DNA from: Mobula hypostoma
Taxonomy: Eukaryota
Direction: 5' to 3'
DNA length: 64,000 nt
Assembly (NCBI RefSeq): GCF_963921235.1
Contig: NC_086097.1
Coordinates: 67,396,001-67,460,000 of the forward strand
The translations under genes were made by a program, and so were the position numbers. Under the pieces are notes generated by a model. That model had not been told where the DNA came from, made no database searches, and saw only the letters and a list, made by a program, of their open reading frames with translations. The stretch's first letter is position 1, and every line of letters begins with the position of its first letter. This document shows, piece after piece, positions 1,800 through 61,000 of this stretch.

Positions 1800-3735
1800 C
1801 AGGTGGAAGAAGGCAGCATACATGAGGTTTAGGAAGGAAGGATCTGATGCGTCTATTGAGGAATTTAGGGTAGCAAGAAAGGAGCTTAAGAAGGGGCTGA
1901 GGAGAACAAGAAAGGCGCATGAGAAGGCCTTGGTGAGTAGGGTAAAGGAAAACCCCAAGGCATTCTTCAATTATGTGAAGAACAAAAGGATGACAGGAGT
2001 GAAGGTAGGACGGATTAGAGATAAAGGTGGGAAGATGTGCCTGGAGGCTGTGGAAGTGAGCAAGGTCCTCAATGAATACTTCTGTTCGGTATTCACCAAT
2101 GAGAGGGAACTTGACGATGGTGAGGACAATATGAGTGAGGTTGATGTTCTGGAGCATGTTGATATTAAGGGAGAGGAGGTATTGGAGTTGTTAAAATACA
2201 TTAGGATGGATAAGTCCCCGGGGCCTGACGGAATATTCCCCAGGGTGTTCCACGAGGCGAGGGAAGAGATTGCTGAGCCTCTGGCTAGGATCTTTATGTC
2301 CTCGTTGTCCACGGGAATGGTACCGGAGGATTGGAGGGAGGCGAATATTGTCCTCTTGTTCAAAAAAGGTAGTAGGGATAGTCCAGGTAATTATAGACCA
2401 GTGAGCCTTACGTCTGTGGTGGGAAAGCTGTTGGAAAAGATTCTTAGAGATAGGATCTCTGGGCATTTAGAGAATCATGGTCTGATCAGGGACAGTCAGC
2501 ATGGCTTTGTGAAGGGCAGATCATGTCTAACAAGCCTGATAGAGTTCTTTGAGGAGGTGACCAGGCATATAGATAAGGGTAGTGCAATAGATGTGATCTA
2601 TATGGATTTTAGTAAGGCATTTGACAAGGTTCCACACGGTAGGCTTATTCAGAAAGTCAGAAGGCATGGGATCCAGGGAAGTTTGGCCAGGTGGATTCAG
2701 AATTGGCTTGCCTGCAGAAGGCACAGGGTCATGGTGGAGGGAGTACATTCAGATTGGAGGGTTGTGACCAGTGGTGTCCCACAAGGATCGGTTCTGGGAC
2801 CTCTACTTTTCGTGATTTTTATTAATGACCTGGATGTCGGGGTAGAAGGGTGGGTTGGCAAGTTTGCAGACGACACAAAGGCTGGTGGTGTTGTAGATAG
2901 TGTAGAGGATTGCCAAAGATTGCAGAGAGAAGTGGGCTGAGAAGTGGCAGATGGCGTTTAACCCGGAGAAGTGTGAAGTGGTACACTTTGGAAGGACAAA
3001 CTCCAAGGCAGAGTACAAAGTAAATGGCAGGATACTTGGTAGTGTGGAGGAGCAGAGGGATCTGGGGGTACCTGTCCAGAGATCCTTGAAAGTTGCCTCA
3101 CAGGTGGATAGGGTAGTTAAGAAAGCTTATGGGGTGTTAGCTTTCATAAGTCGAGGGATAGAGTTTAAGAGTCCGATGTAATGATGTAGCTCTATAAAAC
3201 TCTGGTTAGGCCACACTTGGAGTACTGTGTCCAGTTCTGGTCGCCTCACTATAGGAAGGATGTGGAAGCATTGGAAAGGGTACAGAGGAGATTTACCAGG
3301 ATGCTGCCTGGTTTGGAGAGTATGTATTATGATCAGAGGTTAAGGGAGCTAGGGTTTTACTATTTGGAGAGAAGGAGGATGACAGGAGACATGATAGAGG
3401 TGTACAAGATAATAAGAGGAATAGATAGAGTGGATAGCCAGCACCTCTTCTCCACTGCTCAATTCAAGAGGACATGGCTTTAAGGTAAGGGTTGGGAAGT
3501 TCAAGGGGGATATTAGAAGAAAGTTTTTTTACTCAGAGAGTGGTTGGTGCGTGGAATGCACTGCCTGAGTCAGTGGTGGAGGCAGATACACTAGTGAAAT
3601 TTAAGAGACTACTAGGCAGGTATATGGAGGAATTTAAGGTGGGGGGTTATATGGGAGGCAGAGTTTGAGGGTCGGCACAACATTGTGGGCTGAAGGGCCT
3701 GTACTGTGCTGTATTATTCTATGTTCTATGTTCTC
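1800..3735 (+). mobile_element. CR1 LINE, 5'-truncated ORF2 (reverse transcriptase)
   Basis: ORF 1726-2940 has KSPGPDG, NYRPVSLTS, DFSKAFDKV, GVPQGSVLGP and FADD; the C-terminus is frameshifted; (TTCTATG)n tail near 3716-3735. Confidence 0.95.
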
Positions 3736-3800
3736 TAATTTTTGGTGGTTCAAGATCAAGTAAATTTCTAATAATCAGCCATTGGATTTTTTTTTTCCAG

Positions 3801-3864
3801 AAATCATGATTATTTGGCGTTTGGCACATTTAATATTACAAAAAGTGGAGACACAAGTGACTAA
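3801..3864 (+). CDS. Possible terminal coding exon of an unidentified upstream gene (..NHDYLAFGTFNITKSGDTSD*)
   Basis: Acceptor ttttttttttccag ending at 3800, phase-2 frame open to TAA at 3862-3864, AATAAA at 4145, in apparently unique DNA. No upstream exon seen. Confidence 0.25.
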
Positions 3865-4924
3865 ATTAGAGCACAATTGGTGCCAGGTTTCCTGGAGGTG
3901 GGATCGGGGTTTTGAGTCTGGAGCGTTGATGTGTTTCACCTTGTTTTGAAAATCTGGAACACAGAACACACAAGCTGAAGCATGCACACTAAAGTTCATC
4001 AAGTTCTATGTTCTGTACTTTCTTACTGGGACTCCATTTCCTGCTCCCTTTAAATCTACTGGGATCATGGAAAAATGTGAAACAGATGAAAAAAAGGAAA
4101 ATACAAATGTATCGGGGTCTTAATAGGAATAACAACAAGTAGTCAATAAAATCTGCACCAACAAATTCCTGAATATGAGAGACCATTGGAATTTCATTGT
4201 ATAATAAATAGATTATATTTTGAGGACATGACAGAATATGTGTAGAAAAAACTTGAGATGATAGTATTTTATTAACTATGAATACTTGTTCAAATGTGAA
4301 AAATACAATAGTCTTAATAGTAATCCAAACCATTGGGACTAAATCCATATTTAATGTATAAAATGCATAAGAACTGTATATCCATTGAAAATAGGTTAAA
4401 ATGTCTAATTTTTCAGTGTCAGATTTGGATAAAGTATAATAGTGTCAGCATTAAATGATGTGACTGCTGTGACAGATCGAAAAAACATCAGATGTATTCA
4501 AATTATTTGCTTCAAATGCCATTAATATGACTGCACTGCTTTAGTGTTTAGTCCACCAGCTCCTCATATAATGATATATGCAGGTTTTATTGTTTGATGA
4601 GATAGTGAAAACTGATGAGGGGCTTCAAGCTTCACTGCCGTCTACCTTTAACAGCTCTGATATAAATCGTAGTTATATTCTGTCAGCACAAGAACAGCAA
4701 AATAAAATCAACACAATTAAACTCACATCAAAGTATGATGTCATTGGTGATGTTAGTTGCAACAGAAGGGAGGTGAACCAGAGACATTTTCTGTGGGTAA
4801 TAGATCAATCACAGCAGATAAGAAATGCGTCATTCAGGCCAAGACAGCACACTGTATCAGAATGTTGCCAAGCAATATTAACATGCTTTCCAGCATCATA
4901 CTTTCATGAATATAAGTACTTTGT

Positions 4925-5351: not shown

Positions 5352-8300
5352 TAACCACATAACCATGTAACAATTACAGCACGGAAACAGGCCATCTCGG
5401 CCCTTCTAGTCCGTGCCGAACTCCTACTCTCACCTAGTCCCACCGACCTGCACTCGGTCCATAACCCTCTATTCCCTTCCTGTCTATATATCTATCCAAT
5501 TTAACTTTAAATGACAACATCGAACTTGCCTCAACCACTTCTGCTGGAAACTCGTTCCACACAGCCACCACTCTCTGAGTAAAGAAGTTCCCCCTCATGT
5601 TATCCCTAAACTTTTGCCCTTTAACTCTCAACTCATGTCCTCTTGTTTGAATCTCCCCAACTCTCAATGGAAAAAGCCTATCCACGTCAACTCTCTCAAT
5701 CCCCCTCATAATTTTTAATACCTCTATCAAGTCCCCTCTCAACCTTCTAAGCTCCAAAGAATAAACACCTAACTTGTTTCAACCTTTCTCTGTAACTTAG
5801 GAGATGAAACCCAGGCAACATTTTAGTAAACCTCCTCCGTACTCTCTCAATTTTATTGACATCTTTCCTATAATTCGATGACCAGAACTGTACACAATAC
5901 TCCAAATTTGAACTTACCAATGCTTTATACAATTTCAACATTACATCCCAACTCCTATACTCAATGCTCTGATTAATAAAGGCCAGCATACCAAAAGCTT
6001 TCTTCACCACCCTATCCACATGAGATTCCACCTTCAGGGAACCATGCACCATTATTCCTAGATCCCTCTGTTCTACAGCATTCTTCAATGCCCTACCATT
6101 TACCATGTATGTCCTATTTTGATTAGTCCTACCAAAATGTAGCACCTCACATTTTCCAGCATTAAACTCCTTCTGCCATCTTCCAGCCCACTCTTCTAAC
6201 TGGCCTAAATCTGTCTGCAAGCTTTGAAAACCTACTTCATTATCCACAACGCCACCTATCATCTGCATACTTACTAATCCAATTTACCACCCCATCATCC
6301 AGATCATTAATATATATGACAAACAACATTGGACCCAGTACAGATCCCTGAGGCACACCGCTACACACCATCCTCCAATCTGACACACAGTTATCCACCA
6401 CTACTCTCTGGCGTCTCCCATCCAGCCACTGCTGAATCCACTTTACTACTTCGATATTAATGCCTAACGATTGAACCTTCCTAACTAACCTTCCGTGTGG
6501 AACCTTGTCAAAGGCCTTACTGAAGTCCATATAGACAACATCCACCGCTTTACCCTCGTCAACTTTCCTAGTAACCTCTTCAAAAAATTCAATAAGATTA
6601 GTCAAACATGACCTTTCACGCACAAATCCATGTTGACTGTTCCTAATCAGACCCTGTCTATCCGGATAATTATATATACCATCTCTAAGAAAACTTTCCA
6701 TCAATTTACCCACCACTGACATCAAACTCACAGGCTGATAATTGCTAGGTTTACTCTTAGAAGCCTTTCAAAACAATGGAACAACATGAGCAATATGCCA
6801 ATCCTCCAGCACCATCCCCGTTTCTAATGATATTTGAAATATTTCTGTCAGAGCCGCTGCTATTTCCACACTAACTTCTCTCAAGGTCCTAGGGAATATC
6901 TTGTCCGGACCCGGAGACTTATCCACTTTTATATTCCTTAAAAGCACCAGTACTTCCTCTTCTTTAATCGCCATACTTTCCATAACTACCCTTCTTGTTT
7001 CCTTTACCTTACACAATTCAATATCCTTGTCCTTAGTGAATACCGAAGAAAAGAAATTGTTCAAAATCTCCGCCATCTCTTTTGGCTCCGCACATAGCCA
7101 TCCACTCTGATTCTCTAAGGGACCAATTTTATCCCTCACTATCCTCTTGCTGTTTATATAACTGTAGACTATGACTGTATAACTGTATAACTATGACTCT
7201 GCCATAGTTGGATGCATCAGCAAGGGAGATGAGGCTGAGTACAGGGCTACAGTAGGAAACTTTGTCACATGGTGTGAGCAGAATTATCTACAGTTTAATG
7301 TGAAAAAGACTAAGGAGCTGGTGGTAGACCTGAGGAGAGCTAAGGTACCAGTGACCCCTGTTTCCATCCAGGGGTCAGTGTAGACATGGTGGAGGATTAC
7401 AAATACCTGGGGGTACGAATTGACAATAAACTGGACTGGTCAAAGAACACTGAGACTGTCTACAAGAAGGGTCAGAGCCGTTCTGTTTCCTGAGGAGACT
7501 GAGGTCCTTTAACATCTGCCGGATGATGCTGAGGATGTTCTACGAGTCTGTAGTGGCCAGTGCTATCATGTTTGCTGTTGTGTGCTGGGGAAGCAGGCTG
7601 AGGGTAACAGAATCAACAAAATCATTCGTAAGGCCAGTGATGTTGTGGGGATGGAACTGGACTCTCTCACGGTGGTGTCTGAAAAGAGGATGCTGTCTAA
7701 GTTGCATGCCATCTTGGTCAATGTCTCCCATCCACTACATAATGTACTGGTTGGGCACAGGAGTACATTCAGCCAGAGACTCATTCCACCGAGATGCAGC
7801 ACAGAGCGTCATAGGAAGTCATTCCTGCCTGTGGCCATCAAACTTTACAACTCCTCCCTTGGAGGGTCAGACCCCCTGAGCCAATAGGCTGGTCCTGGAC
7901 TTATTTCATAATTTACTGGCATAATTTACATCTTACTATTTAACTATTTATGGTTCTATTACTATTTATTATTTATGGTGCAACTGTAACAAAAACCAAT
8001 TTCCCCCAGGATCAATAAAGTATGACTATGACCAGAAAGCCTTTGGATTTATTTTCACCTTACCCACTAAAGTTGCCTCGGATCTTCTTCTAGGTGTTCT
8101 AATTTCTTTCTTAAGATCCTTTTAACATTCTTTATATTTCTCGAGTACCTCATTAACTCCAAGCTGCCTATGTTTATTGTAAATCCCTCTCTTTTTCCAA
8201 ACCAAGTTTCCTATGTCCCTTGAAAACCATGGCTCTCTCAAACTTTTAACCTTTCCTTTCAACCTAACAGGAACATAAAATCCTGTACCCTCAAAATTTC

Positions 8301-10260
8301 ACCTTTAAATGATCTCCATTTCTCTATTACATCCTTCCAATAAAAAAAATTGTCCCAATCCACTCCTTCTAAATCCTTCCGCATCTCCTCAAAGTTAGCC
8401 TTTCTCCAATCAAAAATCTCAACCCTGGGTCCTGTCCTATCCTTCTCCGTAATTATATTGAAACTAATGGTATTGTGATCACTGGACCCGAAGTGCTCCC
8501 CAACACAAACCTCTGTCACCTGCCCTATCTCATTCCCTAACAGGAGATCCAACACTGCCCCTTCTCTAGTTGGTACCTCTATGTATTGCTGCAAAAAACT
8601 ATCTTGCACACATTTGACAAACTTCAAACTATCCAGCCCTTTTACAGAATGGGCTTCCCAGTCTATGTGTGGAAAATTAAAATCTCCCACAATCACAACC
8701 TTGTGCTTACTACAAATATCTGCTATCTCCTTACAAATTTGTTCCTCCAGTTCTCGGTCCCCATTAGGTGGTCTATAATACACCCCTATAAGCGTCACAA
8801 CACCTTTCCTATTCCTCAATTTCACCCAAATAGCCTCCTTAGATGAGTCCACTAATCTATCCTGCCAGAGGACCGCTGTTATATATTCTCTGACAAGCAA
8901 TGCAACACCTCCCCCTCTTGCTCCTCCTATTCTATCACACCTGAAGCAATGAAATCCTGGAATATTTAGTTGCCAATCACACCCCTCCTGCAACCACGTT
9001 TCACTAATAGCTACAACATCATATTTCCAGGTATCAATCCATGGTCTGAGCTCATCCACCTTTCTTACAATGCTCCTAGCATTAAAATAGATGCTTTTAA
9101 GAAACTCTCCACCTCTTACTCTCTTTTTATCCTTACTGGAGCAAACAACTTTGTTATCTTTTTCTTCCTTGTCCCCTACATCTTTGGCCTGAGTGCTCCT
9201 GATCTCTGTCCCCTGCCTATCCTCCCTCACACACTGTCTACTAGCTTTCTCTATTTGTGAACTAACCTCCTCTCTCCTAGTCTCTTTAATTTGATTCCCA
9301 CCCCCCCCCCCACAACCATTCTAGTTTAAAGTCACCTCAGTAGCTCTCGCAAATCTACCCGCCAGGATATTGGTCCCCCTAGGATTCAAGTGTAACCCCT
9401 CCTTTTTGTACAGGTCACACCTACGCCAAAAGAGGTCCCAATGATCCAAAAACTTGAATCCCTGCCCCCTGCTCCAATCCCTCAGCCACGCATTTATCCT
9501 CCACCTCATTGCAGTCCTACTTTCACTGTCGCGTAGCACAGGCAGTAATCCCGAGATTACTACCTTTGCGGTCCTTTTTCTCAACTCCCTTCCTAACTCC
9601 CTATATTCTCCTTTCAGGACCTCTCCCCTTTTCCTACCTATGTCGTTGGTACCTATATGTACCACAACCTCTGGCTCCTCTCCCTCCCACTTCAGGATAT
9701 CTTGGACACGATCAGAAATATCCCGGAACCTGGCACCAAGGAGGCAAACTACCATCCGGGTCTCCGGACTGCGTCCACAGAATCGCCTATCTGACCCCCT
9801 TACTATTGAGTCCCCTATTACTACTGCCCTCCTCTTCCTTTCCCTACCCTGCTGAACTACAGGGCCAGACTCTGTGCTGGAGGCACAGCCGCTGTTGCTT
9901 CCCCCAGGTAAGCTGTCCCCCTCAACAGTACTCTAACAGGAGTACCTGTTGTCAAGGGGCACAGCACTGGGGTACTCTCTATTACCTGACTCTTCCTCTT
10001 CCCCGCCTAGCCGTGACCCGCTTGTCTGCCTCCCGTGGCCCTGGTGTGACCACCTAGCCTGTAACTCCTCTCTATCAACTCCTCACTCTCCCTGACCAGA
10101 CGAAGGTCATCGAGCTGCAGCTCCAGTTCCCTAATGTGGTCTCTTAGGAGCTGCATCTCGACGCACCTGGCGCAGATGTGGACGTCCGGGAGGCCTGGAG
10201 ACCCCAGGACCTCCCACATCCGGCACCAAGAACAACAAGCTGCCCTCACACTCATACTTC
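5352..10260 (-). mobile_element. Near-full-length CR1 LINE (ORF1 Zn-finger/SGNH esterase; ORF2 APE + RT), interrupted by Rex1
   Basis: ORF1 pieces CSWCRMWE..CARC and VVHIGTND..EGLHLN; APE 8259-9230 (FNARSI, ISETW, GDFN, SDH); RT pieces 5434-7139; short tandem tail at 5352-5370. Confidence 0.95.
7168..8032 (+). mobile_element. Rex1 LINE 3' fragment inserted in CR1
   Basis: RT C-terminus (LNVKKTKEL-like motif, HPLHNVL..SFLPVAIKLYN), AATAAA and (CTATGA)n tail; very similar to 25925-26934. Confidence 0.9.
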
Positions 10261-10314
10261 CCCTCTCCTCAAATAACAACAAAAAATGAATACCAAACCC
10301 TCTTTGCTTTGTAC

Positions 10315-11002
10315 TAAGACCATAAGACATAGGAGCAGAATTAGGCCATTCAGCCCATCGAGTCTGCTCTGCCATTCCATCATGGCTGATCCTGGATCCC
10401 ACTCAATTCTATACACCTGCCTTCCCACCATATCCTTTTAATGCCCTGACCGATCAGTAAACTATCAACTTCCGCCTTAAATATACACATGAAGTTGGCC
10501 TCCACCGCAGTCTGTGGCAGAGCAATCCACAGATTCACTACTCTCTGGCTAAAGAAATTCCTCCTTACCTCTGTTCTAAAAGGTCGCACTTCAATTTTGG
10601 GGCTGTGGCCTCTAGTTCTGGATACCCCCACCATAGGAGACATCCTCTCCACATCACCCTATCTAGTCCTTGCAACATTCAGCAGGTTTCAATGAGATCC
10701 CCCCCATATTCTTCTAAATTCCAGTGAGTACAGGTGCTGCCAAATGCTCATCATATGTTAACCCCTTCAATCCCGGAATCATCCTCATGAACCTCCTCTG
10801 GACTCTCTGCACTGACAATACATCCTTTCTGAGATATGGGGCCCAAACCTTTTGCCCATACGCCAAGTGTGGCCTGACTAGTGTCTTATAAAGACTCAGA
10901 ATTATGTCCTTGCTTTTATATTCTATTCCCCTTGAAATAAATGCCAACATTGCTTTTGCCTTCTTCACCACAGACTCAACCTGTAAATTAACCTTCTGGG
11001 AG
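10315..11002 (-). mobile_element. CR1 3' fragment of a different subfamily
   Basis: ORFs 10714-10971 and 10380-10652 are CR1 RT C-terminus; taagaccataagacatagg tail. Confidence 0.9.
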
Positions 11003-12323
11003 TGTACACCTCACTTAAAGTAAAGGATGAAGCCACACCTGCATTCCTGGACCTCTGTGTGTTCCTTGAATTCATTTAACGTTTTGAAGTTGCAAATAAT
11101 AACATTTTGGCAATGAGATATTTTTACCGAACTGTTAAAGCGGAGTGAGACATTTGAAGTAAAAAGAAACAGTTCAGCACAGCCCAGCAGGTGGAGAGAT
11201 AGTCTTCAGAAGGGAAGACATGATTGAGTTTCTTAAAGTCAGAAAATGGAAGAATTCAGGGTTGATAAAAAGTGAATACTGGGTAATACTAATCAAAAAA
11301 ATCAGAAATGGCTGGCTACATCGGAAAAGTTGACAAGCTTGATTACGCGACACAATTCATGTATATTGAGCTATTGGAACAAATGAAATAACCAGTGAGA
11401 AGCGAGTCCCAATTTTGCTGAGTTCACTCAGTTTAAAGGCATACAGTTTACTTTGACGTTTGACTGCCCCAAACAAACTATCAAATAAGCTTTGCTACTA
11501 TTGTAAAAGTGATGCAGGAGCATTTAGAACCAAAGTCATTGTTGATTGCAGAATTCCTTAGGTTTCACAAATGGCTCCAAAAGGAAGGGGAGTCCATTTT
11601 AGCCTATGTAGCTGAATTGAAGAGTTTGTATGAGCATTATCAGTTCGGTAATGGACTTAATGATGCACTGAGGGATCGTTTAGTTTGTGGAATCTTAAAA
11701 GAAAGCATTCAAAAATGGCTCCTAACTGAAGCACAGCTGACATTCAAACGGGCAGTGGAAATCGCTGTTTCAGTGGGAACTACCAACAGAGACACAAGTT
11801 GCAGCCAAGAATGAAAGTGAGCATGAACAAAATTGCATTGTCTAAACAGACACCAGCCTGGCCAAATAAATTGTGTTACCGTTGTGGCAGGGGATCACAT
11901 GCACCAAACAAATACAGATTTAAAGGTGAAACTTGCAGAAAAGGCAACAAAGTAGGACACATACGAAGAGTATGTTGGCCAGACAAAAATAAGTGGACTG
12001 CACAGGGAAGAAAAAATGCTAAAAAGTCAAGATGTAGTTTTAAAAAGAGCACTGATCTGCACACTGTTGATGAAAAATCTGATAAGGATGTAAATGACAC
12101 AGGACTGTGTAGCTTTGAGATTTATAGTGTGAAAATTAACAATAGACAAGCAATATGGTTAATGCCAGAAGTGAACTGCAAATTAATTAAAATAGAATTG
12201 GATATTGGTTCAGCTGTTTCAAACATTCCGCAAAATGAGTTTGAATAGCATTTCAAAGGTATCAAACTGAAGCCTGCAGATATCCAATTAAGGAGTTACA
12301 GTATACCGGTGAAAAGATAACTC

Positions 12324-13215
12324 AGAATCAGAATCAGGCTTAACATCTCCGGCATATGTCGTGAAATTTGTTCACTTTGCAGCAGCAGTATAATGCAATA
12401 CATAACAATAGAGAGAAAAAACTGTGAATTATAGTAACTGTATATATATATATATAAAAATGGTTAAATTACATAAATAGAGCAAAATGGGAAAAAAAAT
12501 GTAGTGTGGTAGTGTTCATGGGTTCAACGTACAGTCAGAAATTGGATGGCAGAGGGAAAGAAGCTGTTTCTGAATCACCGAGTGCGTGTCTTCAGACTTC
12601 TGTACCCCCTACCTACCTGATAGCAACAATAAGAGGACATGTTCTGGGTGGTGGAGGTCCTTAATGATGGACACCACCTTTTTGAGGCACTGCTCCTTGA
12701 AGATGTTTTGGATACTATGGAGGCTAGTACCCATGATTGACTGACTAATTTTACAACTCTCTGCAGCGTACTTACACTCTGTGCAGTAGCTATGCCCCTC
12801 TTCATTCTAAATGGTGATGCACCCAGTTAGAATGCTCTCTACTGTACATCTGTAGTAATTTTGCAAGTGTTTTTGGTGACATATCAAATCTCGTCTAACT
12901 CCTAATGAAATATAGCTATTGTTTTGCTATAGCCGTATCAATATATTGCATCCAGGTTGGGTCCTCAGAGAGGCTGACACCCAGGACTCGGAAATCTCCA
13001 CTTCTGATCCCTCTATGAGGATTGGAGTGTGTTCCCTTGTCTTATCTTTTCTGAAGTCCATGCTCATCTCTTTGATTACTGAGTGCACGGTTGTTGCTGT
13101 GACACCATTCAGCTAGCTGGTATATCTTGCTCCTATATGCCCTCTTGTCACCACCTGAGATTCTGCCAACAATGGATGTATTGTCAGCAAGTTTATAGAT
13201 GCAATTTGAGTTATG
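12324..13215 (-). mobile_element. Rex1/Babar-like LINE 3' fragment in the Gypsy protease
   Basis: (AGAATC)n tail and YKLADNTSIVGRIS motif; the host protease reads through as GEKIT|PVGITSVTVKY. Confidence 0.85.
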
Positions 13216-13479
13216 CCTGTGGGAATAACATCCGTAACAGTGAAATACAACAACCAACAAGCCACATTGAGCTTGTATGTGGTAAGAACAGAAGGAACAG
13301 TATTGTGGGGGTGTGATTGGCCGAGGCAACTACAACTTGATTGAAGATCCATCCACCATTTGCCTGCTACTTTTCCTGCAATGAAGCCAACTGAAAGTGA
13401 ATTAAGAAAGGTAGTGGATGACACCACAATTGTCTCCATGTTGAACATCGTGAAATGTTGTCGAACAGAGAACAAACAA

Positions 13480-14545
13480 GTGTTGATGACAACCTCTAAG
13501 CCTCTGGTTGGAAAATATGTTGGACCAAGGAAGAACCACACTGCTTAGAAGAAGCATAGAAGTGACAAATGCAGTGGTCTGGCTACAACAGTTTTTGTAG
13601 GCAACGTTTCTGAGAAAACTTCTGATATGTTAATCAGGTAGTTACTTGCAAAATGTGGCTTGGTTTTAAGATGGAAGTTCAAGGAGCTTCAGAAGAATTG
13701 CAAGCATTCAGCTTTTGTGAGTTTCAAGAACCAGAATCTACTCTGCGTGCATTCAGGTTATTAGTGGGAAACAACAAGTTGCTTGTAAATGTAGATGCGA
13801 AGACCAAAGCCCAGCTGGATGAATGGAAGGTCAAAAAGAAAAGAATGAATGGAGATACGGAAACAGAGGATTTGTCAGATGATGCTGTGGATGCGGAAAC
13901 TAAAAGCTGAGATCAGATCATAAGTGAATGAATTGACTTTATTTCTTACAGCCTTCACGTACATGAGTAAAAATCTTTACATTACGTCTCTGTTTAAATG
14001 TGCAATGTGCAATCATAGTAATTTATAATAATTAATAATAAATAGAACAGACAATGTAACAGAAATACATTCAAATCAGCGTGAGTTAATCAGTCTGATG
14101 GCCTGGTGGAAGAAGCTGTCCTGGAGCCTGTTGGTCCTGGCTTTTAATGCTGCAGTACTGTTTTCTGGATGGTAGCAGATGGAACAGTTTGTGGTTGGGC
14201 TGACTTGCGTCCCCAACGATCCTTCGGGCCCTTTTTACACACCTGTCTACAGATGCGCTGGGCTGTCCGCACCACTCTCTGCAGAGTCCTGTGATTGAGG
14301 GAAGTACGGTTCCCATACCAGGCGGTGATGCAGCCAGTCAGGATGCTCCTGTAGAAAGGAGCAATTGTGCCCCTGTAGAAAGTTCTTAGGATAAAGGATT
14401 AATAAGAGAATACTCCAGTGAACTAAATGCACTTTCCCAAGATCAAGATGCACAAACAAGAAGAAGAAAAAGGACCAGATTGAGAAAGGGAATGTGAGAA
14501 AGAAAAAGAAAGGGAACAAAGTAGATTCAGAAAAAGAAAATGAGA
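13480..14545 (+). pseudogene. RBM25: Processed (intronless) partial RBM25 copy, RRM to start of the RE-rich region
   Basis: Translates TTVFVGNVSEKTSDMLIR*LLAKCGLVLRWK/VQGASEELQAFSFCEFQEPESTLRAFRLL..KLLVNVDAKTKAQLDEWK..; after an insertion it resumes LIREYSSELNA. Contains stops, a frameshift and deletions. Confidence 0.9.
13926..14394 (-). mobile_element. Rex1/Babar-like 3' fragment inside the RBM25 copy
   Basis: ARRIVGDASQPNHKLFHLLPS motif; AATAAA-containing 3' end near 13940. Confidence 0.8.
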
Positions 14546-16280
14546 AGAAATGTGTTCAGCGCTGTCAGAACCACTTCCTGCAGTCTCAGAGTAAACTCCT
14601 ATACTCGCCACAGAGGGGGCTTCAGACCTGAGATTGCTTCACACCCACAAGTCTCACCTGCCAAGGAGAGTGATCTCCCTTGTCAAGAAGGATGTTATCC
14701 CTCAAGAGTAAGAAAGCCTCCACAGCGATGAAATCTTTCGGCCTGAATGGGACAATTAATTATGAGTTATATGTAAAAATACATTAATTGCAGACGTCAT
14801 CACGCTACCACATGATAAATCTGTGCCTTGTTTAAAGTAAAAGACAAAGCTAGACCTGCATTCCTGGACTCCTGTGTGTTCCTTGAATTAGTTTGTTTTG
14901 AAGTTTCAAAACATAACAATCAGCCAGCCATATCTATGAATCAAATTATTCAGCTAGAATAATGATAGTGAATGTGCATTTGTCAAAATGTACTTAGATG
15001 GAGGGCATGCTGCTATCATTGCCGACTTTACAAATTGGATGGCAGTGTGAGCAACGTAAAAGATGCAAAGGAGTTTCAGGAGATACAGGCGAGCCACGTT
15101 TGTGAATGAGTGAAGACATGGCAGGTAGAATATATGTAGAAAAATCTGAGGTACTGATAAAAAATGGAAACAGACAATAGTTTTATATGGTAAAGAATTG
15201 CATAGTATCAGCATTCAAAGGGACCTGAATGTCTTTTTATACAATCACTGAAAGATTATGTACAAGTAGAACAAGAAAATACAGATGGAACAGCTGAGCC
15301 GGAGTGAGCAGGATGTAAATGAGTGGGGTTAGAAGAGGATACTCAAAGTGAAGAGTTAAAGCAGCACGAAAAACTGAGAATATGAGGTGTCAGAGCGATT
15401 GGGAGGCAGTGAAAAAAAGACATTTTAGCACAAGAGTCCTTGTGCGAGAGAGGAAGGGGAGTGCCTTGTTGCTGAGTCTACTAACCAGTGTGTGACCATT
15501 AACTCCAATGGACCTAGACCTAGTCTCCTTTTGTCTAGGTTTCCCTCTGCCTCTGAATCAACATCTGCTATCTGGTCTGCAAGTGCTAGCCCACTTTAAA
15601 GAAGTCACATGTTGGCAAACTTCAATGAGTGTGGGGTGCTGCAAACCTGTTAATACTGTAGACATACCACAAAAACATGCTAGTTATTTTTTAATGAGTG
15701 GTATGTCTTCATGTATATTTTGACCTTTATGGGCTGCTGTCAAGCTTCTCTGTGTGTTATGTACTGAACGAAATGTGAGAGGGCATTCAGAGTAGATGAC
15801 TTCCAAGCAAAATAAACAGCTGCATGTTTGTACCTCACCTCTCTCTTGTGTTTGTGCTCTTTACGACCACCTGGCTTCCCAGTACCACAAACAGAACAAT
15901 TGCAACGAGGTGACAAGGCCTCACATGATATTTATTGTTTTGTTCCCTTTGGCAAAAAAAAGTCAATGCTGATGGTGTACTGCTGTGTAATGTGGTAAAG
16001 CGAAAAGAAGACACCATGTGAAAACGGCCACAGGAAGTGTGGTGAGTGAAGAATACAAAGGGAGAGAATGAGAATGGGACAGTTAATTAAAACAAATGAG
16101 AGAGATGGATACACCAGATAACTTTTCTGGAACATTTGAAAATGGTAACAATGTTTGGAAGAATGATGAAAGGTCATGTGATGAAATGACAGAGCAATGG
16201 TCTGTGTATTGAGGCGGTTCAAAAACATTTGCTTACAGAAGACAGACTAATATTACAGAAGGCAATTTAGATTAGTACAC

Positions 16281-18240
16281 CTATGGAAATGGCAGCTAAA
16301 GAATCAGAATCAGGTTTATTATCACCGGCATGTGATGTGAAATTTGTTAACTTAGCAGCAGCAGTTCAATACAATACATAATACAGAAGAGAAAAAAAAC
16401 AAAATAAAAAAATAAATGAGTAAATCAATTACAGTATACGTATATTGAATAGATTAAAAAATGTGCAAAAATCAGAAATACTGTATATTAAAAAAAACTG
16501 AGGTAGTGTCCAAGGGTTCAATGTCCATTTAGGAATTCGGATTGCAGAGGGGAAGAAGCTGTTCCTGAATCGCTGAGCATGTGCCTTCAGGCTTCTGTAC
16601 CTCCTCCCTGATGGTAACAATGAGAAGAGGGCATGTCCTGGGTGATGGGGGTCCTTAATAATGGACATTGCCTTTCTGCGGCATTGCTCATTGAAGATGT
16701 CTTGGATACTATAGAGGCTTGTACACAAGATGGAGCTGACTAAATTTACAACCTGCTGCAGCTTCTTTAGGTCCTGTGCAGTAGTCCCTCCATACCAGAC
16801 AGTGATGCAGCCTGTCAGAATGCTCTCCACAGTACATCTATAGAAGTTTTTGAGTGCATTTGTTGACATGCCAAATCTTTTCAAACTCCTAATGAAGTAT
16901 AGCCATTGTCTTGCTTTCTTTATAACTGCATCTATATGTTGGGACCAGGTTAGATCCTCAGAGATCTTGACACCCAGGAACCTGAAACTGCTCACTCTCT
17001 CCACTTTTGATCCCTCCATGAGGATTGGTATGTGTTCCTTCATCTTACCCTTCCTGAATTCCACAATCAGCTCTTTCGTCTTACTGACACTGAGCGCCAG
17101 GTCGTTGCTGTGGCACCACTCCACTAGTTGGCATATCTCACCACCTGAGATTCTGTCAGCAATAGTTGTATTGTCAGAAAATTTATAGATGGTATTTGAG
17201 CTGTGTCTAGCCACATAGTCATGTGTATATAGAGAGTAGAGCAGTGGGCTAACTGCAACTTCTCAGTCAGGATTGTGGGAATGATGGTATTAAATACTGA
17301 GCTATAGTTGATGAACAGCAAAACTGTTCATCAACGGTAGGTGTTTGTGTTGTCCAGGTAGCCTAAAGCCATGTGGAGAGCCATTGAGATTGTGTCTGCC
17401 GTTGACCTATTGTGGTGATGGGCAAGTTGCAATGGGTCCAGGTCCTTGCTGAGGCAGGAGTTCGGTCTACTCATGACCAACCTCTCAAAGCATTTCATCA
17501 CTGTCGATGTGAGTGCTTCTGGGCAATAGTCATTTAGGCAGCTCACATTATTCTTCTTAGGCAGTGTTGTCTTTTTGAAGCAAGTGGGGACTTCAGCCGA
17601 TAGCAGTGAGAGGTTGAAAATGTCTTTGAATGCTCCCGCTAGTTGGTTGACACAGGTTTTCAGAGCCTTACCAGGTACTCCATCTGGACCTTCCACCTTG
17701 TGAGGGTTCACTCTCTTTAAAAACAGCCTAACATTGGCCTCTGAGATGGAGATCACAGGGTCATCAGGTGCAGCAGGGATCTTCACAGCTGTAGTTATAT
17801 TCTCCCTTTCAAAGCGGGCATAGAAGGCGTCGTTCATCTGGTAGTGAGGCATCACTGTCATTCACGCTATTGGGTTTTGCTTTGTATGAAGTAATGTCCT
17901 ACAAACCCTGCCAGAGTTGGCGTGCATCCGACGAAGCCTCCAACCTCATTTGAAATTGTCTCTTCGCCCTTGAAATAGCCCTCTGCAAATCATACCTGGT
18001 TTTCTGGTACAGGCCTGGGTTGCCAGACTTGAATGCCACAGATCTAGCCTTCAGCAGATGATGTACCTCCTGGTTCATCCATAGCTTTTGGTTTGGGAAT
18101 ATACAGCAAGTCTTTGTGGGCACACACTCATACACACAGGCTTTAATGAAGTTGGCAACAACTGCAGCATACTCATTTAGGTTCAAAGATGAATCCCTGA
18201 ATACAGGGATTAAGCCCATAAGTGCAGCCAGTAAGCCCAT
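16281..18240 (-). mobile_element. Rex1/Babar-like LINE, 5'-truncated
   Basis: ORFs 17331-17861 (GPDGVPG, NRSTAD) and 16429-17214 (FSDNTT, KTKELIVEFR, HPGHALFSLLPSGRR); (AGAATC)n tail. Confidence 0.9.
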
Positions 18241-18246
18241 CTTCCC

Positions 18247-18373
18247 ATGAAGGGTCTCGGTCTGAAACGTCGACTGTACCTCTTCCTAGAGATGCTGCCT
18301 GGCCTGCTGCGTTCACCAGCAACTTTGATGTGTGTTGCTTGAATTTCCAGCATCTGCAGAATTCCTGTTGTTT
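18247..18373 (+). mobile_element. Short Penelope-derived element, hammerhead core truncated
   Basis: Nearly identical to 22901-23031; starts inside the CUGAUGA box. Confidence 0.85.
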
Positions 18374-20012
18374 CCCACGTTAATAAAGTTTTCACGGACT
18401 ATTGGCAATCAATGTTACCATTGTGGCAAAACTGGGCATTCAACAAAAGAATGCTGGTATAAGGACTTAGACTGCTGAAGCTCTGGCAAAAAACGACATA
18501 CTGAACGCACCTGTAGAAGTAAAAAGACACTGTCAACCAAAAACAATGTAATACAGAAAAATGACTTTGAAAAATAAAAAGAAATGTTAACAAGATGGTG
18601 CATACTGAGGACGGACTCTGTGGTTGAAGAAGGTTTGCATGTTCTATCTGTTTCATGACACAATGATGGCTATTGAGTGATCTTGCAGTTGGATGGGGCC
18701 ACAGTGAGGATGCAGGTGGACAGGGGCATTGCAGTATCACTGGTGTCAGAGACAGTATACAAGGAAAAATTGCAGCATCTCACCCCAGAAGGGGCAAGAC
18801 TTTCACTGGTGAGGTTGTTTCAGTGAGGGAAGTAGCACATGTTACCGTGGAGATTAATGAACAGAGAAAGACGTTTCCACTGTACACTGTTAAAGGTGAA
18901 TATCCAATGCTTCTGGTCCGCTCATGCAGATGCATGTGGAGCCAGGGTCGCAGGAACTGTTGACCATAGTGACTCACAAAGGGATGTCCAGGTGCTGAAG
19001 GCTTCCATTTGGCATCATCTTGGCTCCTGCACTTTTTCAGTGAGCAATGAACCAGATCCTGAGCTGGTTGACAGGAGTGCAGTGTTACTTGGATGACTTG
19101 CCCATTACTGGGAAAAATGAGTGTGAGCACCTACAAAGCCTGGATGCTACACTGCAAAGACTCAAAGGAATATAGGCCAAGGGTCAGGAAGGACAAGTGT
19201 GTCCTTTCGACCTTTGATTGAATATTTAGGCTACGTGATCGACAACTCAGGACTTTACAAGGAACCATCAAAGGTGCAGGCAACCATGGGCGCTCCATCA
19301 TCATAGAATGTAAGTCAATTAAGCTCTTTCTTAGAATTACTAACATACTACACAAAGTTTGTTCCTAATCTAGCTAACATGCTGAAACCACTTCATGGGC
19401 TTTTAAATAAATCAACACACTGGTAATAGATCACTGTGAAGAGGCTTTTAAAAAGGGTCTAAGCAGCTTTGTCACAATCTGAAGCACTGACACACTTCAA
19501 CACTGTCATTGCTCACACAGTTGTCTTGTGACTCATCACCCTATGGTGTGGGGGCAGTTATTTCACACATCGACTGAAGAGCGTCCAATCGCTTTCACAT
19601 CAGGGATATTAGGCAAGGTAGGATGCCACGATGCCCAGATTGAGTGGGAAGCAATCACAATTGTCTTTGGAGTTAAGGAATTCCATCAATTCCTCTTTGG
19701 TTGATGATTTTTACAGAACTGACAGGTCATCACCCCTTGATGCCAATTTTTGGTCCGCATGTGGCTATTCCTTCCCTGGCTGCTACTTGAATGCAACATT
19801 GGGCTCTATTACTATCCACACGTCAGTACGATATAAAGCACAGGAGGTCCGAGCACCATTCGAATACTGATGGACTATCTGGCCTTCCATTAGCTGTTAC
19901 AGCTCCAGACCCATCTCTGAAAGAGATCTTTTTATTTATTTATTTATTGAGATACAGCACAGAGAAGGCCTTCCTGACCCTTCATGCTGTGCTGCCAGTA
20001 ATTCCCCGATTT

Positions 20013-26934: not shown

Positions 26935-29464
26935 TACTTCACAGAAGTACATACAGCTCTGATAACTGCGGCACACGTCCAGAAGCACACACACATACTG
27001 ACCCTTTTCTATCTAAAGTGGTGGATATGGTAATTCATGAATGGAAAGGAGAATTGAAACCTTACCAGGCTTGATGGAGGGAGCTCACAGTCCAAGCTAT
27101 GACTTATGTTTACTATGGGGCAACCATGTTGTCATTCCTCCACCATTAAGAAAGCAAGTGCTTGATAAGCTACATGCAGGACACTGGCATAGTGTGCATG
27201 AAAGAAAACACCTGCAGCTACTTCTGGTGGCCAGAACTGGATGTAACCATTGAAGGGAAGGCCAAAGCGTGTCTAGATTTTCAGCGGGTGAGGAATGTTC
27301 CTCGACTTGCTCCTTCGCATCCATGGGAATGGCCTAAGGAACCATGGCCAAGGATCCACATAGATTTTGCAGGACCTGTAGAAGGCCACATGTTCTTGGT
27401 CGTAGTAAAACCACACAGCAAATGGCCCAAGGTTGCCATCATGAAGAGCACTACATCTGAAAAATGCATTGAGGAGCTACATTCCATCTTTAGCCATTTT
27501 GGGCCTCCTCAATAGCTTGTAAGTGACAATGGCCCACTGCTCCTGTCTGAAGAGTTCAAGGCATTTAAGGAAGCAAATGGTATTTGGCACATCAAGTCAG
27601 CACCATATCATCCAGCCACTAACGGCTTTGCTGAATGATTTGTATAAGCAATGAAACAAGACGTCAAGACCTCAGTGGGAAGTGGATCCCTTAACCAGCA
27701 TCTTAATACTTTCTTGCTGACATACTGTAACACACCTCACTCCACCAACAAAATGGCTCCAGCAGCTGCACTGATGAAAAGACAGTTTCACACCCAGCTT
27801 GACCTGCTTAGACACCCAAACACAAAATAGATCATGCAAAGCAAACAGAAAACCCAAGCAGAGAGATGCGCCAAAGTATAGTACAGAAGTTTCACAGCAG
27901 GAGAGAGGGTACTTGTCTGGAACTACATCTCTGGAACAAAGTGGATGCCTGCAACTGGTCCTGTGTCATACTCAGTAGAAACCAGTAACCATAACATGTG
28001 GAGAAGGCATGTTGACCAGCTGTTGCCCACTTCTGAGGCTACTGAAAACCAGCTACAAACTGACCAAACCAGATCAGTTATAGAAATGGGACAGAATTCT
28101 AAGACAATGACTGCAGAGCCTCCATTACGATCAAATGACACAGCTAGTACACACACCCCATCACCTGTGCTTTCTGAGGTGCCCAAGCAGCACCCAAGCC
28201 AAGATCTATGCATACTCCACCAAGAGATAAAATGACTTTGGCATCCTGTCTGGGTGGTTGGTACTCTCACAGGAGCAGGCAGCCTCCAGGCAGATTGAAT
28301 CTCTTATTTAGTGACTAACCCTCAGCATATGGAGCAGACTAATCCCCAAGGTTACATCTGGGAATAGAGGCAGTCTGTCCTCTTTCCCTAGTTTAGAAGA
28401 AAAAAACATTGTCGTTGGTTGAATTTGATGATTATTCCATTGAATGTTAATAGTTCAGCAGCTGCTCTGAGTATGGGAAGGTGAGAAACTTTTAAGATAA
28501 GTGGGGGAGGGATATGTCATGTATTCATATATGTTTAACCCTTATGGGTTGCTGTCCAACTTCCTGTGCCTTACGTACTGAACATGATGTGAGGGGGCAC
28601 TCTGGGTAGATGACTTCCAAGCAAACTAAACAGCAGCCGGTTTGTTCCTTACCCCTCTGTCTCTCGTATGTGTTATTCACAGTCACCCAGTTTTCCAGTA
28701 CCACAAACATAACAATGAGAACCTTCAAAAAAATGTGATTTTGAAGAAAGCACATTGGTTGCTAACCACAACAGTGTGATTAATCAGACATGGAAGAAAT
28801 TTTCAATTTCTCGTGACAATCCAATTGAAGTTGTTCAGTACATTTGAACAGAAAAATAACCTCAAGGATGCTGATTGAAGTTTCTGTGTATAAATCCAGT
28901 ATTTCACATTTCTTTGTAAGGCAAAGTACAAAGATACAGAACATATTCATGCATGTGAAGAACGGTTTGCTTAATCTCCTACGCACCGCAGAGACACTTT
29001 CAGATCTAATGATGGTATATTACAATTGATTAAGGAAGTTTACCAACTGAAACTTTTCTCCAATGGATAAAATTAAAGACAATCATATGCAATGTTTTAG
29101 TGCCATTGGGAAATGAAGGACTACAAGGTGGTTTGAAGGAATATTTGTTTATTTCACGAGCTGTTTTAGTTCTGGTGCAATATTTTCTTTCAACAATCAG
29201 GGCGATAGCTAAAATCCTCATCTTTACATGCCTGACAGACGAAAAATATGACTTGCAATGTGAATTTCTTCATCTACTGATAGGGGAAAATCACCTTAGT
29301 GGAGAGCTTTTTGCATTTTTTGTGCACAATGCCAATATAAATTTTGGTCATTTTGAAGAAGCTGGAAAAAACATCGTGAAAATGACAGCACAAATTAGGG
29401 ACAAAAGATACTTGGTTTTGGTTATGGTGCTCATATTGTTCATCATTTAATTAAGAGGAGGGGT

Positions 29465-31635: not shown

Positions 31636-31925
31636 TATAAGAACATAAAACTTAAAACATAAAACGTAGGGGCAGAATGAGACCATTTGGTCCATTGAGT
31701 CTGCTCCACCATTTGACCATGGCTGATTATTTTACCCTCCGAACCCCATTCTCCTTCCTCCTCCCTGTAACCTTTGACACCTTTATTAATTAAGAAACTA
31801 TTAACCATCGTCACAGCTGCTGTTGCATGAATTTCACAGATTCATCACCCTCTGGCTAAAGAAACTCCTCCTCATCTCTTTTCTAAGGGGATAACATCTT
31901 ATTCTGAAGCTATGCCCTTTGCCCA
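31636..31925 (-). mobile_element. CR1 3' fragment
   Basis: Similar to 10315-10620. Confidence 0.8.
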
Positions 31926-56878: not shown

Positions 56879-58067
56879 CTATTCAGTAAAACCATGCAAC
56901 CAAAAATCAACAATGTCAGCCAGAGACTATTTTAATGATTACAAAGAACATTCGAGACATTGACAGGAATAATGATCAATTAGAGAAAGTCAGCTTGGGA
57001 TTGATTGTCAGCTGACCAATAGGCATTGTTTGTTTTGGCTCACCATAACAACCCCCTCTTGAAGATGATTACCTGCAGGATTTGAGCCAAAGGTTTAATT
57101 TAGGTCGGAATAAATGGCTTGCACTGGCGATCAGAACTTTTTCATGGTCACAAGCTGTCATGTTCTCGTCTTGATGTTGCTTGTGACTGTGCTGTGTTGG
57201 TGGTTGGTTCGGTTGGGTGGACTGTTTTAGGAGGAGATGAAAGTCCAGCTCTATTTTTGATGATCTACCTGATGAACCTGATATGCTATTGGGAGCATGT
57301 TACCGCAACCGGTTGATGTGGTGATGCAAGGCAGGTCCCTCTGTGATAACTTTGTAGAGCACTTTCCCTATGTGCTTGACAATCTGACCTGGTACCAAGG
57401 GTCTCTTAACTACTGCCATACAGTCTGGCTCACTGCAGCACTGGGCTTGAATGGCTTCACCTATTGACCAAGATCAGTGTGGTTATCATTGTGCATCTGG
57501 CCTCCTGTTATCTTGGATGTTGGGCTCTTTGGCAGCATTTCACTCAACATTGTATGCAGTTTCCTTCCCAAATGCGCTTCAGCTGGAGACTTCCCCCTGG
57601 ATGCAGGATAATTTGATATGTCAGAGAAATATGCTGAGAGCCTTGACCAATGTTTCTTCCCCTCAATATCAAGAGTGATTGTTTGAGGGTATTCACAAAC
57701 CTCTCTGCTTGACTGTTGGATTGTGGATGATACAGGGGTGAGCGGCTGTGGATAATTGTGCTGGTCTGGCAGACTGCAGCAAACTGCTGTGTACTGAATT
57801 ACGTGCCGCTATCAGAAACAAGCGTTTCTGGCATCCCAAACTGCAGCAGCTATTGAATGGTAGCCTTTTTCATTGTTGACTTTATAGGTAATACTGGCCA
57901 TTTGGAATAGTTGTCAACCAGAACAAGGTTGATTGAGCCAGCAAAATCAGTATGTACTCTACTCCAAGGTCTAGTAAAGTAATGCTATGGTTGAGGATTG
58001 GCTCTACTTGGATTCTTTGTGCCATAGAGTACTGAGTAAACTGCTTGTATACGGATGTGATATCTTC

Positions 58068-61000
58068 ATAGAACATTGCACATAGAACATAGAGGGTACA
58101 GCCCAGGAACAGGCCATTCAGCCCACAATGTTGTGCTGATCTATCTAAAACTGAACCAAAAACCCTCAAACACTAATCCCTCCTACCTACACCATATCCA
58201 TACCCCTCCATCCTCCTTATATCCGTGTGTCTATCCAAGTGTCTCTTAAAAGCCTCTAATGTATTTACCTCTACCACCATATCAGGCAGCATATTCCAGG
58301 TATTCACAACTCTCTGAGTAAAAAACTTACCCTTCACATCTCCCTTGAACATACCCCCTCTGACTTTCAATGCATGTCCTCTGGTATTAGAGTTTTCAAT
58401 CCTGGGAAACAGATACTCTCTATCCACTCTGTCTTTGCCTCTCATAATCTTGTAAACCTCTATCAAATCTCCCTCAGCCTCCTTGGCTCCAGAGAAAACA
58501 GCCCGAGTTCATCTAGCCTCTTGTGACAGCACGTGCGCTCTAAACCAGGCAGCATCCTGGTAAACCTCTTCTGCACCCTCTCCAAAGCCTCAACATCCTT
58601 CCTATAGGGGCGACCAGAACTGTACACAATCCTCCAGATGTGGTCTAACCCGAGTTTTATAAAATTGCAACATAAACTCTGACACTTGAACTCAATGCCC
58701 TGACTAATAAAATCAAGCATTCCATAACCCGGCTTAACAACTTCATCAACCAGTGTAGCCACTTTCAAGGACCTATAAACTTGGATTCCAAGCTCTCTCT
58801 GCTCAGCAACTGTTAAGGACCTTGCCCTTAACAATGTACTGTCTTCTTCCATATGCCCTACCAAGGTGCAACACTTCACATTTATCTGGGTTAAACGACA
58901 TCTGCAATTTCTCAGCCCATACCTGCAATTGGTCTATATGGTACTGTATTCTTTGCCAGTTGTAGCATCTGCAAACTTAGTAACCCACCCATCTACGTTT
59001 TCATCCAGGTCATTTATATAAATTACAAACAGCAGAGATCCCAGCACAGATCCCTGTGGAACTCCACTAATTACAGACCTCCAGCTTGAATAAGTCCCTT
59101 CATCCACAACCCTTCTCTGTGCAAGCCAGTTCTGAATCCAAACAGCCAATTTGCTGTGGATCCCATGCATCTTAATCTTCTGGATTAGCCTCCCATGAGG
59201 GACTTTGTCAAAAGCCTTACTACGATCCATGTAGACAACATCCACTGCCCTACCCGCATCAATCTCTCTCATCACCTTCTCAAAAAAATCAATCAAGTTG
59301 GTACGACATGACCTGCCATGCACAAAGCCATACTGGCTCCCCCTCATTAAGCTATGAATTTCTAAATGCTTATATATCCTATCCCCAAGAACTTTCTCCA
59401 GCAATTTCCCCACAACTGATGTGAGACTCATCGGTCTATAGTTCCTAGGATTTCCCCTTTTTCCCTTCTTCCCTTCTCAAATACAGGTACAACATTAGCC
59501 GCTCACCAGTCCTCTGGGATCTCGCCTGTGGCCTGAGAGGATACAAAGATATTAGTCAAGGACCCAGCAATCTCATCTGTTGCCTCTTTCAATAACCTGC
59601 GGTAAATCCTATCATGTCCTAGGGACTTGTCCACCTTAATACTCCTTAGGCGGACTAATACTTCTTCCTGCTTGACCTCTAAACGTTCCAACGCATTTGT
59701 ACGTTCAGCAATGATCACCTGGTCCTCCATATCTTTTCCTTGCTAAGTACTGAAGCAAAGTACTCATTAAGTACCTCACTCACATGCTCTGCATCCAAGT
59801 AAATGTTTTATTTATCTTTATCCTTGAGTGGTCCCACCCTCTCCCTAGTTATCCTATTACTCTTGATGTATGTAGAGAATGCCTTGTTATTCACTGTAAT
59901 CCTACTTGTTAAGGATTTTTCATGGCCCTGCTTGACTTTCCTAATTTGCTTCTTTAGTTCTTTTCTGGCTTCTTTATACTCCTCATGTGCTTTGCTTGAT
60001 CCTGACTTCCAAAGCTTTACAAACTTATCTTTTTTTTCTTCTTAACTAAATTCATCACCTCTTTGGACATCCAAGGTTCTCTTATCTTCCCATCACCATC
60101 CTTCCTTCTAACAGTAACATACTTTTCCTGTACACTGTGCAATTGATCTTTAAACACCCTCCATATGTCTGATGTGGAGTTGTCAGAGAAAATATGTTCA
60201 TAATTAACACTTGTTAGTTCCTGACTAATGCCCTCATAGTTTGCTCTACTCCAAATTAAAACTCTCCCACAAGGACCATACTTATCTCTATCTGTAGCTA
60301 ACCTGAAAGATAAGGAGTTGTAGTCACTGCTCCCTAACTGTTCACCTACTGAAACGTTGTCACCTGGTCAGGCTCTTTACCCAACACCAGGTCCAGTATG
60401 GCCCCACCTCTCATTAGACCGTCCACATACCAATTCAAGAAACCTTCCTGGATACACTGAACAAATTCAGCCGCATCTAAACCCCTTACACTAAGAAGGT
60501 CCCAGTTTATATTGGGGAAGTTGAAACCCCCATGACAAAAAGATCTATTATTTTTACACATTTCCTTAACCTGATTACATATCTGTTCCTCAAAGACCCA
60601 GTGGCTATTAGGGGGTCTGTAGTACAATCCCATCAGTGTGCTTGCACACTTCCTATTCTTGAATTCCACCTAAATGGACACAGTGCTTGACCCCTGCATT
60701 ATGTCTTCCCTGAGTGCAGCTGGGATATTGTCCCTGATTAGTAGTACCTCCTTCTCTACCTTTTCTAAAACTTTGAAAACCTGGTACATTAATCACCCAT
60801 TCCTGCTCCTCTCTCAACCAAGTTTCAGTGTTCAGTATTCAGACAGTGGTGAATCTGTGGAATTCTCTGCCACAGCAAACTGTTGAGGCCAGTTCATTGG
60901 CTATGTTTAAGAGGGAGTTAGATATGGCCCTTGTGGCTACAGGGGATCAGGGGGTATGGAGGGAAGGCTGGGGCGGGGTTCTGAGTTGGATGATCAGCCA

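Follow-up and report, generated by a model that had tools for sequence, protein, structure and literature searches.

A high-copy Gypsy family in which pol is replaced by intron-free RBM25 sequence, probably captured from mRNA

A Gypsy element on the + strand of a 64,000-nt window of Mobula hypostoma DNA, whose numbering is used throughout, very probably represents a high-copy family in which pol was replaced by intron-free RBM25 sequence, captured via template switching and spread by the enzymes of intact relatives. Gypsy gag-protease sequence (11308-13425) is followed by RBM25 coding sequence, an integrase tail and a 3' LTR. Judged by depth, the chimera has multiplied to roughly a thousand copies and is common to several species. 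The examined copy is dead; it decayed and was hit by three LINEs. The mechanism of capture is already known and it is the scale that is unusual.

The original prediction had placed an LTR, gag and protease on the + strand up to about 13435, and protein searches bear this out, with residues 1-419 of the Gypsy polyprotein P0154 matched at 11308-13434. The first stretch, gag and the first half of protease of a K02A2.6-like polyprotein (11308-12302; tblastn, P0154 1-170 and 182-341, E 6e-75), carries stops and a frameshift. The second (13210-13425; P0154 345-419, E 1e-15) holds the remaining protease half and a linker, reaching the expected start of RT. Gag-protease has 63 homologues, the top ones being full Gypsy polyproteins with 68-72% identity. 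The two LTRs agree at 75/87 aligned bases in their core (11015-11104 and 14832-14918, K2P 0.15) and at 80 of 99 over a longer stretch (11003-11104 and 14820-14918). The 5' LTR remnant (11003-11104, +), recognised by its identity to the 3' LTR, lacks about 57 nt of its start, behind a LINE; an upstream search for the missing portion was negative (score 30; shuffles 23-40). A decayed primer-binding-site-like motif with a TGG start can be read from the sequence 3 nt past the LTR (11108-11119, +).

Beyond RBM25, the integrase C-terminal tail (14546-14731, +) and the LTR follow in the order anticipated. By protein comparison alone the tail is a weak match (P0165 1285-1318, located at 14627-14728, E 8e-4); it ends with the YPSR..KPP motif present in full-length relatives, and its start is marked by a depth step at 14545 and by records starting at 14543-14563. 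The 3' LTR (14763-14918, +, about 156 nt) is delimited by the LTR pair, by a drop in depth past 14918 and, for its inferred start, by one contig whose match begins at 14763 with foreign sequence ahead of that point. In two of the listed records the match ends at 14757, which suggests a deletion in the examined copy; ahead of its 3' LTR this copy retains no clear polypurine tract. The predicted absence of RT, RNase H and the integrase core held in protein searches, which gave no match to them between 13434 and 14627. About 850 codons (P0154 residues ~420-1270) are absent, with RBM25 in their place. None of the decayed pieces had a Pfam hit above curated cut-offs, the best being RRM_1 (E 0.009, a 30-residue piece).

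The RBM25 fragment had been assigned to 13480-14545. Its intronless nature stands; its start is corrected to ~13426, some 54 nt upstream, and its extent is reduced to ~650 nt in total, because a 471-nt LINE (13923-14393) sits inside that interval. The 5' part with the RRM (13426-13922, +) was defined by tblastn with P0121 and P0122, frame continuity and exon borders, and the 3' part (14394-14545, +) by P0121 172-200 (E 8e-8), a weak match to P0060 287-325 and DNA alignment to an exon of the genomic locus L001. Matches to the shark isoform P0121 cover 13438-13922 and 14393-14479 (E 2e-27, 5e-35, 8e-8), and the opening segment is present in both shark isoforms, P0121 and P0122. There is an internal deletion near 14468; exon skipping was rejected as its cause, as the window exits the exon ~12 nt short of the donor. 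The piece is a partial mRNA that stops near residue 325 of ~820 (P0060), in a purine-rich Arg/Glu repeat, as the description of the 3' junction had implied. Both breakpoints are internal to coding sequence and the orientation is sense. Inspection of the sequence found neither a poly(A) after the piece nor a TSD around it, again as first described. The reading frame is continuous with that of protease. A comparison of the 5' junction, restricted to protein, shows A-T-T-V-S-M in host P0122 and A-T at that place in the Gypsy relatives P0153, P0161 and P0219; codon 13423 is Ala in 80-98% of depth across other copies. The true 5' junction, the in-frame protease-RBM25 fusion and the three nested LINEs had been overlooked.

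The piece is contiguous over four exon borders (13480, 13651, 13704 and 13854), as inferred from other vertebrates; it thus spans several exons, and an origin from a single genomic exon is not seen. The border corresponding to 13854 coincides with a splice acceptor in L001. Among 44 RBM25-type hits, 30 show intron read-through after ..RQLL(A/S) and 11 start at Q|VL.P, while 13 partial proteins terminate at SGKLQ. The many short hits are host exons with intron read-through rather than decayed copies. The metagenome contigs (2/64 parts scanned) gave one amniote-like genomic locus.

LINEs are plentiful in the window, and three inserted later into this element, all on the minus strand: into the 5' LTR, protease and the RBM25 piece. 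The one at 10313-11010, 5'-truncated and identified from minus-strand ORFs, is presumably CR1-type; it has similar copies at 31650, 34725 and 60840-61067, and removes the start of the 5' LTR together with the target-site duplication. Protease is split by a fragment at 12322-13209 (72% over 949 nt to a LINE at 16300-17208, with a TCAGAA tail repeat), and the ORF of that related LINE carries PF09004. The fragment in RBM25 (13923-14393) has 48% identity to the PF09004 LINE ORF (E 4e-11). It is missing from other copies, in which 13918/13923 is joined to 14394 in 10, 6 and 15 contigs (runs X1, X5 and X10). A search for TSDs at two of the nested LINEs gave only chance-level 6-7-mers.

Evidence for amplification comes from public DNA contigs with three species labels, in which each site is represented by more than 100 distinct contigs. 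RBM25 reaches 519-2,925 times single-copy depth, a ratio of summed contig depth which, by the tool's own warning, is no copy number. The RRM bins reach a summed depth of 9,300-18,800 in run X1, against 18 in unique flank, and 69,000-143,000 in X5, against 92. The RRM is covered at 0.5-0.9 times the depth of protease. X1 depth is lower at 13465-13584 (3,000-4,000), therefore not every copy aligns there. Past the 3' LTR end at 14918, depth drops within 100 nt from the thousands to single-copy values of 18-92. One variant at 13723 is present in 115-124 contigs. Among the 32 records listed out of ~120,000 pieces, two bridge the 5' junction and three the 3' junction, at 81-84% identity; both of the listed 5' bridges are from organism C and neither is from the likely source species. 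Joints from 14474 to 14557-14563 occur in 10, 13 and 12 contigs. As regards co-transcription from the LTR, one junction contig, of depth 151, belongs to a run whose RNA nature is a guess; among the runs listed no RNA holder is recorded, which counts neither for nor against expression. Contig counts, RBM25 depth, bridged junctions and the collapse of depth outside the LTR argue for an amplified non-autonomous family, whose many divergent copies have identical junctions under all three species labels. Amplification, at first raised as possible, is now strongly supported by the depth ratio and contig counts, and the junctions are not single-copy, since other copies bridge both. Independent LINE-made pseudogenes may account for part of the RBM25 depth.

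We propose that RBM25 mRNA was co-packaged with element RNA and that reverse transcriptase jumped from the element RNA to the spliced mRNA and then back. Switching may have occurred at short common sequence: the 5' side offers an Ala-Thr codon pair, the 3' side purine-rich repeats. Having kept gag, the primer site and its two LTRs, the chimera would stay packageable, and later spread would likely have relied in trans on the enzymes of intact relatives. Four observations support LTR-mediated capture of spliced RBM25 mRNA, as originally put forward: RBM25 takes the place of element sequence instead of interrupting it, it is broken within the coding sequence at both ends, it lies in sense, and no intron occurs at the four exon borders.

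It is very unlikely that RBM25 arrived as a LINE-made processed pseudogene in a Gypsy copy, which lost RT-integrase along with the 3' end and poly(A) of the mRNA through later deletions before being amplified. LINEs are certainly at hand, with three in the element itself, and CR1/Tx1 LINEs are credited with non-mammalian retrocopies in the accessible part of a 2026 preprint. However, the hallmark of such pseudogenes is an mRNA 3' end, poly(A), TSD and continuous target, whereas this piece stops at less than half of RBM25, with no 3' coding sequence, poly(A) or TSD. At least one additional large deletion, ending inside both partners, would be required, and other copies have identical internal breakpoints. 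Segmental or tandem DNA duplication of a single chimeric locus without retrotransposition is barely credible, given the drop in depth within 100 nt of the 3' LTR and the lack of the nested LINE of the examined copy in other copies.

Template-switch capture leaves the role of the cargo to be considered, and RBM25 was most likely a passenger. A founder making a Gag-protease-RRM polyprotein, whose released RRM aided RNA packaging, export or splicing escape and so drove amplification, is unlikely. The common frame of protease and RBM25 would favour it, as would the retention of RRM depth relative to protease. Two of the three in-frame stops are minority states (80-97% and 76-100% of depth shows a different letter), and the frameshift at 13677 looks private to the examined copy because 6/8 spanning records are 3-5 nt longer. 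Yet an in-frame junction arises by chance 1 time in 3, and non-autonomous elements can amplify well with no useful cargo. No gag-PR-RRM product was found: of 79 hits from phmmer against 50% representatives, two already-known RBM25 ids were excluded, and 0/77 examined proteins had both parts, nor did any of 120 listed. Two candidates, neither significant, came from a word-indexed search using the translation across the junction, and the viral contigs searched contained no RBM25 relative. If true, selected RRM cargo would have let a helper-dependent transducing Gypsy family rival its parent in number.

Replication-defective transducing retroviruses carry gag-onc fusions with host cDNA in frame in place of pol, and depend on helpers. 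The RBM25-Gypsy chimera resembles them in the first respect and probably in the second; unlike them, it has no envelope and is not infectious, and its fusion protein is putative. With fish K02A2.6-like Gypsy elements (P0151-P0165) it shares Gag-PR order, short LTRs, the integrase tail motif and gag (57-72% protein identity), but lacks their RT, RNase H and integrase core. As characterised in the accessible text of Tan et al. (2016, PMC5131818), LTR-mediated retrocopies are partial mRNAs, more truncated at the 3' end, that substitute internal ORFs, lie between discontinuous parts of a single element, have no poly(A) and can undergo secondary retroposition with common switch points. The chimera agrees in replacement, lost introns, lack of poly(A) and TSD, both LTRs and secondary retroposition. 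For fly, that text counts a few insertion sites for each retrocopy; it reports 5/7 (zebrafish), 4/10 (chicken) and 1/3 (mosquito) retrocopies, and has no cartilaginous fishes in its species set; against these few copies stand about a thousand in several species. The maize Bs1 element described there (1-5 copies, three donor genes, switch points common to all copies) is likewise an LTR element with spliced host fragments and common switch points; the examined copy has a single donor, and its family is orders of magnitude more numerous (PMC5131818). The literature searched gave no description of an RBM25-bearing Gypsy family, and it did not support an analogy with songbird PAK3L/PIM1L.

Documented cases of LTR-mediated gene capture in animals are for the most part rare and low in copy number; in this case a single capture led to a family of about a thousand copies. 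Because that family is large and multi-species, its junctions and the fate of its cargo are open to statistical study. The accessible part of the 2026 preprint places regulators such as SUDS3 among the top retrocopy parents in cartilaginous fishes and attributes non-mammalian retrocopies to LINEs and selective filtering. An alternative that such surveys can test is that a few LTR chimeras were amplified. RBM25-Gypsy copies would inflate counts of RBM25 paralogues and cause RNA reads to multi-map.

The Gypsy element is real and carries paired LTRs, as originally predicted: a direct repeat joins 11015-11104 to 14832-14918 (75 identities over 87 aligned bases; K2P 0.15). The K02A2.6-like polyprotein P0154, which has RVT_1, RT_RNaseH, rve and gag-asp_proteas Pfam domains, aligns with residues 1-170 at 11308-11796, 182-341 at 11820-12302 and 345-419 at 13210-13434. 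The next alignment inside the element is a short match to the P0154 tail (14627-14737), with none between 13434 and 14627. The gap therefore amounts to some 850 codons, those for RT, RNase H and the integrase core, and RBM25 sequence occupies their place.

The original prediction of an RBM25 fragment at 13480-14545 was right as to identity. A 94-residue ORF best matches an RBM25-like protein of a sevengill shark (E 2e-27, 70% identity), and nearly all named matches are vertebrate RBM25, which points to the window coming from a cartilaginous fish. The predicted extent does not stand, as a LINE (13923-14393) splits the fragment and true RBM25 amounts to about 650 nt. Nor does the start at 13480; the 5' junction lies near 13426-13431, since from 13426 the window matches a segment held by shark RBM25 isoforms P0121 and P0122 and absent from the bony-vertebrate sequences retrieved. 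This segment (16-20 residues, 13426-13479) sits upstream of the RRM exon, occurs as two splice variants (P0001, P0121, P0122) and is exclusively shark-type among retrieved sequences. A single reading frame, 13210-13677, runs through protease, linker and RBM25, with three stops inside.

The piece is intronless as claimed, the window being contiguous at 13480, 13651, 13704 and 13854, borders drawn from relatives' sequences and not from this species' own RBM25 gene. Intron read-through directly after ..RQLL(A/S) is seen in 30 of 44 RBM25-type matches, while 11 start at the border between Q and VL.P; SGKLQ ends 13 partial proteins, and P0001 differs from P0121 by four residues precisely at the Q-V border. 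At L001, an amniote-like genomic RBM25 locus, a pyrimidine tract and AG precede the exon matching 13854 and a donor follows KEKKED, with the following exon 2.5 kb further. Near 14468 the window departs from the L001-type exon about 12 nt ahead of the donor and picks up again in Arg/Glu-repeat sequence, through an internal deletion that joins purine-rich stretches and is common to 2 of 32 listed records. Neither poly(A), as had been noted, nor 3' coding sequence of RBM25 follows the piece.

Three LINEs are younger than the element. The first, at 10313-11010, has cost the element its TSD and some 57 nt of the 5' LTR, and the lost LTR sequence was not found upstream of this LINE. The others, at ~12322-13209 (interrupting the protease between P0154 residues 341 and 345) and 13923-14393 (interrupting RBM25), resemble the PF09004-bearing LINE at 16300-17262; within the latter insertion, 14350-14361 is an in-frame surplus of about 12 nt relative to other copies. 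Just upstream of the element lies a decayed LINE (8259-9932, minus strand) with a GDSL-esterase ORF1 and an endonuclease domain. Other, more distant Gypsy remains with RT/RNase H/integrase, broken by long insertions, lie at 18410-19950 and 26982-28205 (plus strand) and 57650-58010 and 62390-63490 (minus strand). A Pfam scan of 22 long ORFs in the window found no host-gene family, every match being a LINE domain.

Contigs of 4 of the 24 listed runs were aligned to 13225-15010 at 80% likeness. Summed depth in the RRM bins was 9,300-18,800 against 18 in unique flank in DNA run X1, and 69,000-143,000 against 92 in X5. Ratios to flank or median listed contig depth were 519-2,280 (X1), 749-2,925 (X5) and 789-1,554 (X10), which give an order of magnitude only, as summed contig depth is not copy number. 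Independently of depth, a single variant at 13723 is borne by at least 115-124 contigs in each DNA run. Depth collapses just past the 3' LTR, thus the amplified unit stops at the LTR. Two of the 32 listed records, both from X10, span the 5' junction at 81% identity, and three, all from X5, span the 3' junction at 82-84%; each covers 31 nt or more on either side. Fifteen of the 1,593 joints are listed; among them, joints running from 14474 to 14557-14563 were counted in 10, 13 and 12 contigs, and joints that bypass the LINE at 13923-14393 in 10, 6 and 15. Depth over the RRM is 0.48-0.87 times that over the protease. Three points speak against a family: the depth dip at 13465-13584, the lack, among the 32 listed records, of a 5' bridge from the likely source species, and RBM25 depth that independent pseudogenes may have added.

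The pol core was most likely replaced through RT template switching. RBM25 mRNA would have entered a Gypsy particle together with the element's RNA, with RT switching onto the host message and then back. Since the chimera kept LTRs, primer site and gag, intact relatives could have mobilised it. This route follows the model of Tan et al. 2016 (PMC5131818), in which 25 of 29 fly junctions showed microsimilarity. Protein sequences suggest microhomology at the 5' junction: host P0122 reads A-T-T-V-S-M, A-T stands at the matching place in some Gypsy relatives, and other copies have Ala at codon 13423 in 80-98% of their depth. The burst appears to be old, judging by an LTR divergence near 0.15 (an imprecise value from 87 sites), by the 81-88% identity between this copy and others, and by an abundance that is similar in three species labels.

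The window copy is dead, as predicted, and it is improbable that the RBM25 cargo was functional in the element. The protease-RBM25 fusion is in frame, but this is expected by chance in one case of three. Two of the three stops in 13210-13677 are minority states among copies and look private to the window copy, as does its frameshift (6 of 8 records spanning it run 3-5 nt longer), and a founder with an open protease-RRM frame is therefore plausible. However, none of 77 examined proteins combined Gypsy and RBM25 parts, nor did any of 120 matches listed in another search, and the translation spanning the junction gave no significant match. RBM25 is joined to the integrase tail (14474/14562 joint) in a contig of run X9 whose depth, 151, is 23 times that of the LTR-plus-flank contig of the window locus (6.65). 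This is a weak hint of a possible transcribed chimeric copy elsewhere, as the RNA nature of X9 is a guess and expression level is not readable from contigs.

The literature searched yielded no description of an RBM25-carrying Gypsy family. In the part available, a VGP retrocopy preprint (10.64898/2026.06.26.734816) names SUDS3 as one of the leading parent genes in cartilaginous fishes and regards LINEs as the source of non-mammalian retrocopies; its main text does not mention RBM, though supplements might list RBM25. Of the features of LTR-mediated retrocopies tested in the chimera, several are present and none was contradicted. Scale sets it apart from the cases in Tan et al. 2016 (PMC5131818), where maize Bs1 has 1-5 copies and fly LTR-mediated cases occupy a few sites. 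The RBM25 chimera family is real, probably arose by a known mechanism and is unusually large.
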